Of a stretch of DNA of 64,000 nucleotides, positions 49,896 through 50,636 are shown piece after piece (position 1 is the first letter of the stretch; each line of letters opens with the position of its first letter). The stretch lies in NCBI RefSeq assembly GCF_055900595.2, contig NZ_CM148325.1. One strand, 5' to 3'. The notes below the pieces were generated by a model, which had not been told where the DNA came from, made no database searches, and worked only from the letters and a program-made list of their open reading frames with translations. Made by a program: the position numbers and the translations under genes.

Positions 49896-50044
49896 ATTAC
49901 GCTCCTGATTGTTGCACTTAGTGTCTCTCTTCGAAGCGGATAAGTCAAAAACATATATGACTTAACGAATATGTAAGTGTAGAGAAAGGTATAGGTGTGA
50001 ATTAAGCGTTGGGTGTTCATTTGAAAGGAAGTCTGAATCAGGAT

Positions 50045-50128
50045 GTAAAAAAACCGACTTTGCGTCGGTTTTTTACTCTTCAGCCAGAGTTGGTGGCTCT
50101 GGCTGGAGTGAGAATGCCCACATCTAAC
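50045..50128 (-). ncRNA. agrA: agrA-like small RNA candidate (repeat unit 1 of the arsR-gor region)
   Basis: About 84-bp unit with A-tract, GC hairpin (ACCGACTTTGCGTCGGT) and T-tract, repeated at 50278-50363; position between arsR and dinQ matches the K-12 agrA/agrB locus. Strand and ends are inferred, not measured. Confidence 0.45.
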
Positions 50129-50277
50129 GGTTCAATACTATTAGCCAGTGGCTAACATTGCAAGCGTTAGCGATTTCTTCAGCTGGCGAAGGGACAGTTT
50201 GCTATACATGGTGGTGAAAGAGGATTGATATACTTTCATCGGGTCGCTGCCGTACCAAGCCTTGTCCGAATCCGGAC

Positions 50278-50363
50278 GTAAAAAAACCGACTTCGCGTCG
50301 GTTTTTTTACTCTTCAGCCCAGAGTTGGTGGCTCTGGCTGGAGTGAGATAGCCATCATCTAAC
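50278..50363 (-). ncRNA. agrB: agrB-like small RNA candidate (repeat unit 2; antitoxin RNA for dinQ)
   Basis: Near-identical copy of unit 1; a third partial copy (about 50531-50566) lies in the dinQ 5' region, so a minus-strand transcript of unit 2 would be complementary to the dinQ mRNA leader. Confidence 0.45.
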
Positions 50364-50425
50364 ACATCAATGCTAATACCATACTGAAACCATTGCAAGG
50401 ACATGCTGGTTTTATAACCCGCAAG

Positions 50426-50445
50426 TACTGTATGATTATCCAGTT
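50426..50445. promoter_or_regulatory. LexA (SOS) box upstream of dinQ
   Basis: TACTGTATGATTATCCAGTT matches the LexA consensus (CTGT-N8-ACAG with the central AT-rich core); dinQ is damage-inducible. Confidence 0.65.
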
Positions 50446-50636
50446 GGCTCTGAGGCATTTTCACTCTGGCAATGCGCATAAACGCTTTCAAAGTCCTGAT
50501 CAGTGGTACGGGTGGTGCCGTTAACTGATGCTCTGGCCGGAGTGAGATTGCCCACATCTAACAATGAGGCATGCGCCGTGACAGGCAGTGGATGAGTAAG
50601 CGGATGCATTCTCACTCCATCGCATGGAGAAAACGG

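Follow-up and report, generated by a model that had tools for sequence, protein, structure and literature searches.

The intergenic region between arsR and gor in the window (the whole 64,000-nucleotide stretch of contig NZ_CM148325.1, RefSeq assembly GCF_055900595.2, that was analysed) carries three copies of a sequence repeated in direct orientation, the third of which lies in the leader of a small toxin gene. The locus raises the question of what these copies encode and how they would act on that gene. It is bounded by two genes of the same strand:

49542-49895, minus strand: arsR
50774-52126, minus strand: gor

The two longer copies, units 1 (50045-50128) and 2 (50278-50363), are identical at 79 of the 86 columns of their global pairwise alignment, which includes two 1-nt indels. 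This confirms the repeat observation of the initial annotation, whose quoted unit strings (GAGAATGCCCACATCTAACGG, GAGATAGCCATCATCTAACAC and GAGATTGCCCACATCTAACAA) were correctly read. Its unit size of about 84 bp is too small, since the homology reaches the promoters: the repeat search paired 50031-50074 with 50264-50307 (91% identity), 50069-50085 with 50303-50319 (100%) and 50084-50164 with 50319-50399 (78%), and the full duplicated unit spans about 134 nt (50031-50164 and 50264-50399) that take in the sRNA promoters described below. The partial third copy in the dinQ leader is equally real. It belongs to a 33-nt family with copies at 50096-50128, 50331-50363 and 50530-50562 whose identity is 88-94%. 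Outside this 33-nt core, neither alignment nor repeat search showed the dinQ copy to resemble the agr units on either flank. A chance match is excluded because 100 shuffles of the window gave an expectation of 0.00 for the 33-mer with at most three mismatches, and in the 64-kb window it was found at the dinQ/agr locus only. Note that this cutoff scores unit 1 and the dinQ copy only, as there are 4 differences between the two units.

The two units are the minus-strand sRNA genes agrB and agrA, as identified by their family membership and by their collinearity with b4713 and b4712 of MG1655:

50047..50127, minus strand: agrB orthologue (unit 1; RF02891, MG1655 b4713), adjoining arsR
50280..50362, minus strand: agrA orthologue (unit 2; RF02891, MG1655 b4712), adjoining dinQ

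Full-length minus-strand matches to the Rfam family RF02891 AgrB were obtained at 50278-50362 (90.7 bits) and 50045-50127 (90.0 bits), with E-values of 5e-16 and 8e-16 for the two units and a gathering score of 40 for the family. Further weak Rfam matches (Spy779816 and a plus-strand AgrB, 24-30 bits) stay under the gathering score and correspond to the symmetric terminator hairpin only. The region is 100% identical to E. coli Z0117EC0005. Its alignment to MG1655 is collinear, and the comparison with the annotated K-12 coordinates places both units on annotated sRNA genes: b4713 (agrB) maps to 50127..50047 and b4712 (agrA) to 50362..50280, both on the minus strand, while dinQ maps to 50637..50720 on the plus strand. 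The curated MG1655 record lists gor, dinQ (b4613), agrA (b4712), agrB (b4713) and arsR, and the window has the same gene order, arsR-agrB-agrA-dinQ-gor. The initial annotation had named the right genes in its heading (agrA / agrB / dinQ leader), though in reversed order if the heading is meant to follow the coordinates, unit 1 on the arsR side being agrB and unit 2 on the dinQ side agrA. The agrA and agrB features are absent from the PGAP-annotated E. coli records inspected, in which only arsR, dinQ and gorA of this locus are annotated; among the records inspected they are present only in the curated MG1655 record.

The locus is thus almost certainly the chromosomal dinQ/agrAB type I toxin-antitoxin system of E. 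coli, present as a rare allelic variant. Its identification as dinQ/agrAB had already been put forward in the initial annotation and is supported by the RF02891 matches, the MG1655 orthology and the toxin_DinQ match of the encoded peptide. Repeat anatomy, family membership, orthology, complementarity and predicted folds are direct results of the present analysis. For transcription, processing, translation control, RNase III cleavage and toxicity, we infer that what is known of K-12 would apply to the alleles of the window. The DinQ peptide, the LexA box, the sRNA promoters and terminators, the four switch sequences and the position of the antisense site are all the same as in K-12; the differences are an intergenic identity of about 91% and the 8-nt blocks of agrB and dinQ. 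The dinQ/agrAB identity of such repeats is already published and there is nothing new in the repeats themselves, so that re-identifying the locus as a textbook case is of small importance by itself. Their origin by duplication, also invoked in the initial annotation, had likewise been proposed by the 2013 authors as a tandem duplication followed by degeneration of agrA (PMC3567139).

Each sRNA gene appears to have its own promoter and terminator. The signals located are:

50045..50076, minus strand: Rho-independent terminator of agrB (A-tract, CCGAC/GTCGG hairpin, T-tract; Rfam structure line and MFE fold)
50135..50163, minus strand: predicted sigma-70 promoter of agrB, read from the sequence
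50370..50398, minus strand: predicted sigma-70 promoter of agrA, read from the sequence

The A-tract, GC hairpin and T-tract that had been noticed in the repeat unit correspond on the minus strand to the Rho-independent terminator in the Rfam AgrB model. The inverted-repeat arm I1 (50045-50074) covers the agrB terminator hairpin and I2 is its equivalent in unit 2; the agrB terminator looks bidirectional. The putative agrB promoter has a -35 box TTGCAA (50163-50158), a 17-nt spacer and a -10 box TAGTAT (50140-50135) followed by 7 nt to +1 at 50127, and the stretch CAATACTATTAGCCAGTGGCTAACATTGCAAG is the same in MG1655. The K-12 start site of agrB was placed by primer extension (PMC3567139). The agrA counterpart has TTGCAA (50398-50393), a 17-nt spacer and TAGCAT (50375-50370) 7 nt before the 5' end, with one spacer substitution relative to MG1655. 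A consensus scan of 49850-50850 called neither the sRNA promoters, because their score of 8/12 is below its threshold, nor the sRNA terminators, because their T-tracts are drawn into A-U stem pairs; both were assigned from the Rfam structure and from conservation in K-12 instead. The K-12 sRNAs were seen by northern blot and primer extension (PMC3567139) and are expressed constitutively (PMC3567139, PMC5066626).

The toxin gene and its leader, with the four sequences of the published switch, are laid out on the plus strand as follows:

50428..50443, plus strand: putative LexA operator of the dinQ promoter, CTGTATGATTATCCAG (pattern match, identical in MG1655)
50443..50775, plus strand: predicted dinQ primary transcript, from a presumed +1 at 50443 to the terminator common to dinQ and gor
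50458-50470, plus strand: sequence 1 (model of PMC5066626), partner of sequence 2 in the inert +1 form
50486, plus strand: +44 processing site, transferred from K-12 numbering
50530-50561, plus strand: AgrB target site, which is the third repeat copy (the copy extends to 50562), from the repeat family and in-register pairing
50536-50548, plus strand: sequence 2, inside the AgrB target site
50609-50620, plus strand: sequence 3, from inverted repeat I5 (50539-51 against 50606-18) and folds
50624-50629, plus strand: sequence 4 with the Shine-Dalgarno GGAG, partner of sequence 3 in the SD hairpin
50637..50720, plus strand: dinQ ORF with GTG start, 27-aa peptide MIDKAIIVLGALIALLELIRFLLQLLN (NCBIfam, K-12 accession)
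50737..50767: hairpin terminator common to the convergent dinQ and gor (terminator scan, inverted repeat I6)

The peptide matches the NCBIfam equivalog NF041472 toxin_DinQ with 54 bits against a cutoff of 30; it is WP_001295215.1 in the 100%-identical genome, and K-12 has the same accession. The K-12 site matching the operator is described as the dinQ LexA box (PMC3567139). Published numbering (GUG at G195, AgrB site G88-A119; PMC5066626) was moved to the window through the MG1655 alignment, which is gapless in this stretch, and the published AgrB site falls at 50530-50561, on the third repeat copy. The end of the target lies 65 nt upstream of the SD GGAG (50626-50629).

According to the mechanism proposed for this locus, LexA would repress the SOS-induced dinQ, and the primary transcript would be translationally inert, with sequence 1 holding sequence 2 and thereby freeing sequence 3 to shut the SD hairpin. 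Loss of the first 43 nt would yield the +44 form, in which sequence 3 is instead bound by sequence 2, with an open SD hairpin and translation of the 27-aa membrane toxin. In K-12, translation occurs from the +44 transcript only (PMC3567139, PMC5066626). The two minus-strand sRNAs, presumably constitutive and each served by its own promoter and terminator, carry in their 5' ~32 nt a direct-repeat copy of the dinQ leader, hence a sequence antisense to that leader. Pairing of AgrB would displace sequence 2, so that the SD hairpin re-closes and a substrate for RNase III arises. AgrA, its tandem paralogue, pairs with more mismatches and probably has little or no antitoxin activity.

The predicted MFE folds of the window's transcript reproduce the published switch in three respects. 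The +1 fold (50443-50775) pairs 50459-50470 with 50536-50547 and closes the SD hairpin (50615-20 with 50624-29); the +44 fold contains the duplex between sequences 2 and 3 (50539-47 with 50610-18); and when the AgrB site of the +44 form is kept single-stranded, the SD hairpin re-forms. Note that in the +44 MFE structure GGAG is still paired with CUCU at 50531-50534, so that the 2:3 duplex is backed by the fold, which by itself does not open the SD.

The initial annotation had also claimed that a minus-strand RNA of either unit would pair with the dinQ leader, and this complementarity is present in both. Over its 5' 32 nt (50127 to 50096) the agrB sRNA is complementary to the leader and forms 30 of 32 Watson-Crick pairs with it, the two mismatches (C.A and U.U) leaving helices of 13, 9 and 8 bp. 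AgrA forms 28 of 32 such pairs, and its four mismatches leave helices of 7, 3, 10 and 8 bp. The duplex energies, a calculation that had been suggested as a check, are -57.9 kcal/mol for AgrB and -47.9 kcal/mol for AgrA, against -18 +/- 3 kcal/mol for shuffled 33-mers. Net energies, defined as duplex energy minus the cost of opening both RNAs, are -30.1 (AgrB) and -23.1 kcal/mol (AgrA) with the +44 form, and -20.1 and -13.1 kcal/mol, respectively, with the +1 form. In the +1 form, access to the AgrB target thus costs about 10 kcal/mol more, which fits the poor binding of AgrB to the K-12 +1 transcript (PMC5066626).

In K-12, DinQ is counteracted by AgrB only (PMC3567139, PMC5066626); AgrB, and not AgrA, closes the SD region, stops translation and triggers RNase III cleavage (PMC5066626, PMC3567139), and loss of agrB leads to UV sensitivity (PMC3567139, PMC5066626). 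The energies of the K-12 duplexes are -58.2 (AgrB) and -42.7 kcal/mol (AgrA), a gap of 15.5 kcal/mol as compared with 10 in the strain of the window. Counted as mismatches, AgrB and AgrA stand at 2 versus 4 of 32 in the window, the published K-12 values being 1 versus 6 of 31 (PMC3567139): the AgrB/dinQ pair of the window has one mismatch more than that of K-12 (U.U at 50548), and its AgrA is nearer the target than K-12 AgrA. Since it pairs more strongly (30/32, -57.9 kcal/mol versus 28/32, -47.9 kcal/mol), AgrB is the predicted cognate antitoxin and would be the better of the two in this strain, with a smaller gap than in K-12. The earlier suggestion that only one of the two sRNAs is a good antitoxin thus holds in so far as AgrB pairs better and the K-12 experiments agree, and is weakened by the narrower gap: inactivity of AgrA in the window's strain is presumed from K-12, where its difference from AgrB is larger, and the sharp distinction between the two sRNAs may here be blurred.

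This raises the alternative that both sRNAs work as antitoxins in the window's strain, AgrA being redundant and not degenerate. AgrA is unpaired at just 4 of 32 positions, its duplex and its net energy with the +44 form are still strongly favourable, the gap to AgrB is narrower than in K-12 as given above, and the copy at the agrA position, proximal to dinQ, is the best match in other lineages. Against it, the AgrA mismatches split the 5' seed, and the resulting helix pattern resembles that of K-12 AgrA (8, 4, 9 and 8 bp), which neither closes the SD nor inhibits translation in vitro (PMC5066626). We consider this alternative unlikely and retain AgrB as the main antitoxin. Pairing across strains is weak: K-12 AgrB reaches -37.9 kcal/mol on the dinQ of the window, where the cognate pair reaches -59.1 kcal/mol, and the two cross-strain duplexes have -37.9 and -46.2 kcal/mol.

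Other type I systems offer partial parallels. The zorO-orzO/zorP-orzP, Ibs/Sib and Ldr/Rdl systems are duplicated type I modules in which few mismatches make an antitoxin toxin-specific. There, whole modules are duplicated, whereas in the window the antitoxin alone is duplicated beside one toxin gene. The SOS-induced tisB/istR-1 system of E. coli, with which the dinQ authors themselves compare dinQ/agrB (PMC3567139, PMC5066626), shares with it LexA control, a small membrane toxin, an inert primary mRNA activated by 5' processing, and a divergent trans-encoded antisense sRNA that binds far upstream of the RBS. It differs in its unrelated sequence, in having no tandem sRNA paralogue, and in that IstR-1 blocks a ribosome standby site while AgrB re-closes the SD hairpin. 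The dql (dinQ-like) genes, carried on chromosomes and plasmids of Enterobacteriaceae, are relatives of dinQ in both toxin and 5' UTR (PMC5066626, PMC8594479); the window holds the genuine dinQ at its arsR-gor position and not a dql copy.

The differences between the window and K-12 cluster in one 8-nt block of the repeat, flanked by GAGA and ATCTAAC, which occurs in all three copies:

50114..50121: agrB variable block, ATGCCCAC on the plus strand (pi = 0.38)
50349..50356: agrA variable block, TAGCCATC (pi = 0.21), identical to the K-12 agrA block
50548-50555, plus strand: dinQ variable block, TTGCCCAC (pi = 0.48)

In K-12 the agrB and dinQ blocks are both GAGTTCTT and the agrA block is TAGCCATC, so that 6 of 8 positions are changed in agrB and in dinQ and none in agrA. 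The diversity values come from 14 finished two-copy haplotypes; pi is 0.02-0.03 in the flanking agrB sequence and 0.01-0.06 in the functional sequence beside the blocks. Loci were sampled from species-representative genomes, 12 further finished E. coli genomes and metagenomes, and the population pattern derives from sequence comparison in a modest sample of about 25 finished genomes. Each of the 15 distinct isolate haplotypes contains an agr copy that fails to pair with the dinQ target at no more than 2 of 32 positions. When targets were permuted among the genomes 10,000 times, as good a match never arose. This co-variation provides independent evolutionary support for the dinQ/agrAB pairing. 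The proximal copy matches better in 6 haplotypes and the distal copy, as in K-12 and the window, in 5; the remaining 4 have a single copy. Metagenome contigs (69 loci) yielded many extra haplotypes, including single-copy loci without a cognate agr; they were kept as a secondary sample, and conclusions were built on isolate genomes, because short-read assemblies can collapse the 234-bp tandem repeat or mix strains.

It is tentatively proposed, with somewhat less than even confidence, that the 8-nt block is a specificity determinant diversifying in Escherichia, where dinQ and one agr copy would change together and the agr slots would swap the cognate role between lineages. Such joint changes may pass through G.U intermediates, or short tracts may be copied from one direct repeat to another. 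In several near-cognate pairs (for example TAGTCATC with TAGTCGTC and GAGCTCTT with GAGTTCTT) every difference is of a kind that leaves a G.U pair, which fits a putative stepwise compensation; where the same 8-mer stands at paralogous sites, short-tract copying could be the cause. If the cognate role does swap, the description of agrA as a degenerate copy would be true of K-12 and not of the species. At an identity of at least 99% over 232 nt, a proximal-cognate haplotype (ATGCCATT) is found in 1,685 of 5,426 complete genomes and the K-12-type haplotype in 1,485. The window's dinQ allele occurs in 11 of these genomes, and its class (ATGCCCAC/TTGCCCAC) would be a rare specificity class. The co-variation of the blocks and the lineage-dependent cognate copy seem to be undescribed: a search for literature on dinQ/agrB together with gene conversion, coevolution, polymorphism or phylogroup found nothing relevant. 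The T1TAdb rule, which takes the upstream sRNA with the most stable predicted interaction (PMC8594479), implicitly allows a swapped cognate copy. If true, the pattern would supply naturally occurring sRNA/mRNA pairs, some matched and some mismatched, for gauging the mismatch tolerance of a type I antitoxin, and would show how a chromosomal toxin-antitoxin system can change its specificity, or disappear, with survival of the cell.

The persistence of the second sRNA might also be explained by a role of AgrA beyond dinQ silencing, either as a spare specificity slot that could take over the cognate function once the dinQ target changes, or in regulating another target or the amount of AgrB. No two-copy haplotype has lost the promoter, terminator or stem-loop of the proximal copy (pi outside the block, 0.01-0.06), this copy is the better match in 6 of the 11 two-copy isolate haplotypes, and agrA RNA rises 9.5-fold in a K-12 agrB mutant (PMC3567139). 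As a single agr copy suffices in many lineages, and conservation of the proximal copy may reflect recent duplication or homogenisation between the units, such a role appears rather improbable, and the preferred reading remains that of a paralogue with little antitoxin activity in the window's strain.

The spacer between the two sRNA genes contains a further recognizable element:

50203..50255, minus strand: relic of the 3' part of gor

It is 83% identical over 53 nt to gor at 50989-51041, in the same orientation (blastn against the whole window, E = 2e-10), and has a blastx match to Gor residues 351-397. RefSeq places a hypothetical protein, WP_162754263.1, at 50141-50479 on the minus strand, within a full ORF of 138 aa (50141-50557). 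That the repeats lie within a real minus-strand protein gene is very improbable: the 138-aa ORF is present and PGAP annotates part of it in the identical genome, but none of the 13 further finished haplotypes with two copies, among them K-12, has an ORF of the same extent, and the content of the 138-aa ORF is sRNA, promoter and gor-relic sequence. The ORF was rejected as a gene on these grounds. For annotation, the lesson is that RefSeq/PGAP omit agrA and agrB, and that in the window's strain a spurious hypothetical protein is called across both.

That the units are generic REP/BIME-like repeats or inert, untranscribed duplication scars has nothing more in its favour than that they are repeats containing hairpins, and it can be practically dismissed: the agr units are confined to one locus in the window and to a median of 1 place per E. 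coli genome (range 1-3), they match a curated sRNA family over its full length, their K-12 orthologues were detected by northern blot and primer extension (PMC3567139), and the 8-nt block co-varies with the dinQ target.

The dinQ/agrAB locus is not complete in all strains. The segment with the dinQ promoter and leader is missing in about 815-824 of the 5,426 complete genomes (~15%). In ST131, the sole such genome read closely, a single chimeric repeat (GCT joined to TAGCCCAC) fuses the agr terminator and stem to the dinQ leader. Recombination of the dinQ repeat with one of the agr repeats would produce such a fusion, and would have removed the toxin and antitoxin promoters in one step.

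Sequence variation in the pairing region of the Agr RNAs and dinQ is concentrated in a short block that is present in each copy of the 33-nt repeat (in agrB, in agrA and in the dinQ leader, respectively).

50114-50121, 50349-50356 and 50548-50555, the three copies of the 8-nt block within the 33-nt repeat

This block is hypervariable throughout Escherichia, with a pi of 0.21-0.48 versus 0.01-0.06 in its flanks. Comparison of the window with the collected dinQ/agr loci L001-L013 and L083-L093 shows that the dinQ target co-varies with one of the agr copies. The identity of this cognate copy differs between genomes: the dinQ block is matched by the distal copy (agrB position) in K-12 and in the window, and by the proximal copy (agrA position) in E69, O157 AR-0428, SWYH.B349aT and others, a proximal-cognate type carried by some 1,685 of the 5,426 complete genomes. 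The C.A mismatch in the duplex (dinQ GCC, agr GCT; position 50538 versus 50104 and 50339 in the window) is the same in nearly all haplotypes. The dinQ C50538 has G50468 as its partner within its own RNA, while the mismatched A of AgrB is paired inside the AgrB stem-loop. Such intramolecular pairing on both sides may be the reason why the mismatch was never repaired.

The spacer separating agrB from agrA carries a relic of gor that covers Gor residues 362-379 approximately.

50203-50255, minus strand, 53-nt relic of gor (3' part) with 83% identity to 50989-51041

The relic is absent from single-copy lineages and, therefore, the two-copy state did not arise from the single-copy one by simple tandem duplication. 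The locus can also be lost. In ST131 (NZ_CP103710.1; positions 712-800 of collected locus L003) a single chimeric repeat, in which the agr terminator and stem are fused directly to the dinQ leader, looks as if an agr repeat had recombined with the repeat of dinQ. The promoters of dinQ and agr are gone together with the LexA box, yet PGAP continues to annotate dinQ at this locus. The segment with the dinQ promoter and leader is missing from about 15% of the complete genomes of E. coli, of which ST131 is one example. In E. coli ZH177 (NZ_CM125652.1; L094, 371-1068) the locus is disrupted by an IS1A insertion downstream of the distal agr copy, and its DinQ ORF has either been truncated or been re-annotated to a hypothetical protein of 15 aa.

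Two minus-strand ORFs overlap the locus.

50141-50557, minus strand, 138-aa ORF, a part of which is the RefSeq hypothetical protein WP_162754263.1
50436-50615, minus strand, 59-aa ORF antisense to the dinQ leader

The first runs across agrA and the gor relic as well as the dinQ promoter. An ORF of such extent is limited to the haplotype of the window, which makes it very likely to be spurious. The second, called hypothetical in the annotation of some genomes, is open in 14 of 14 finished two-copy haplotypes, a conservation that probably reflects only that of the dinQ leader.

Other Rfam matches in the window reach the gathering score.

24135-24248, minus strand, GadY (150 bits)
30028-30099, minus strand, ES205
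39770-39801, plus strand, shuA/chuA 5' UTR thermoregulator
59141-59181, minus strand, ES036

The K-12-like phylogroups A and B1 are not known to carry chuA, so that the putative chuA leader would imply that the strain of the window lies outside them. A different phylogroup would fit its divergent agr/dinQ alleles.
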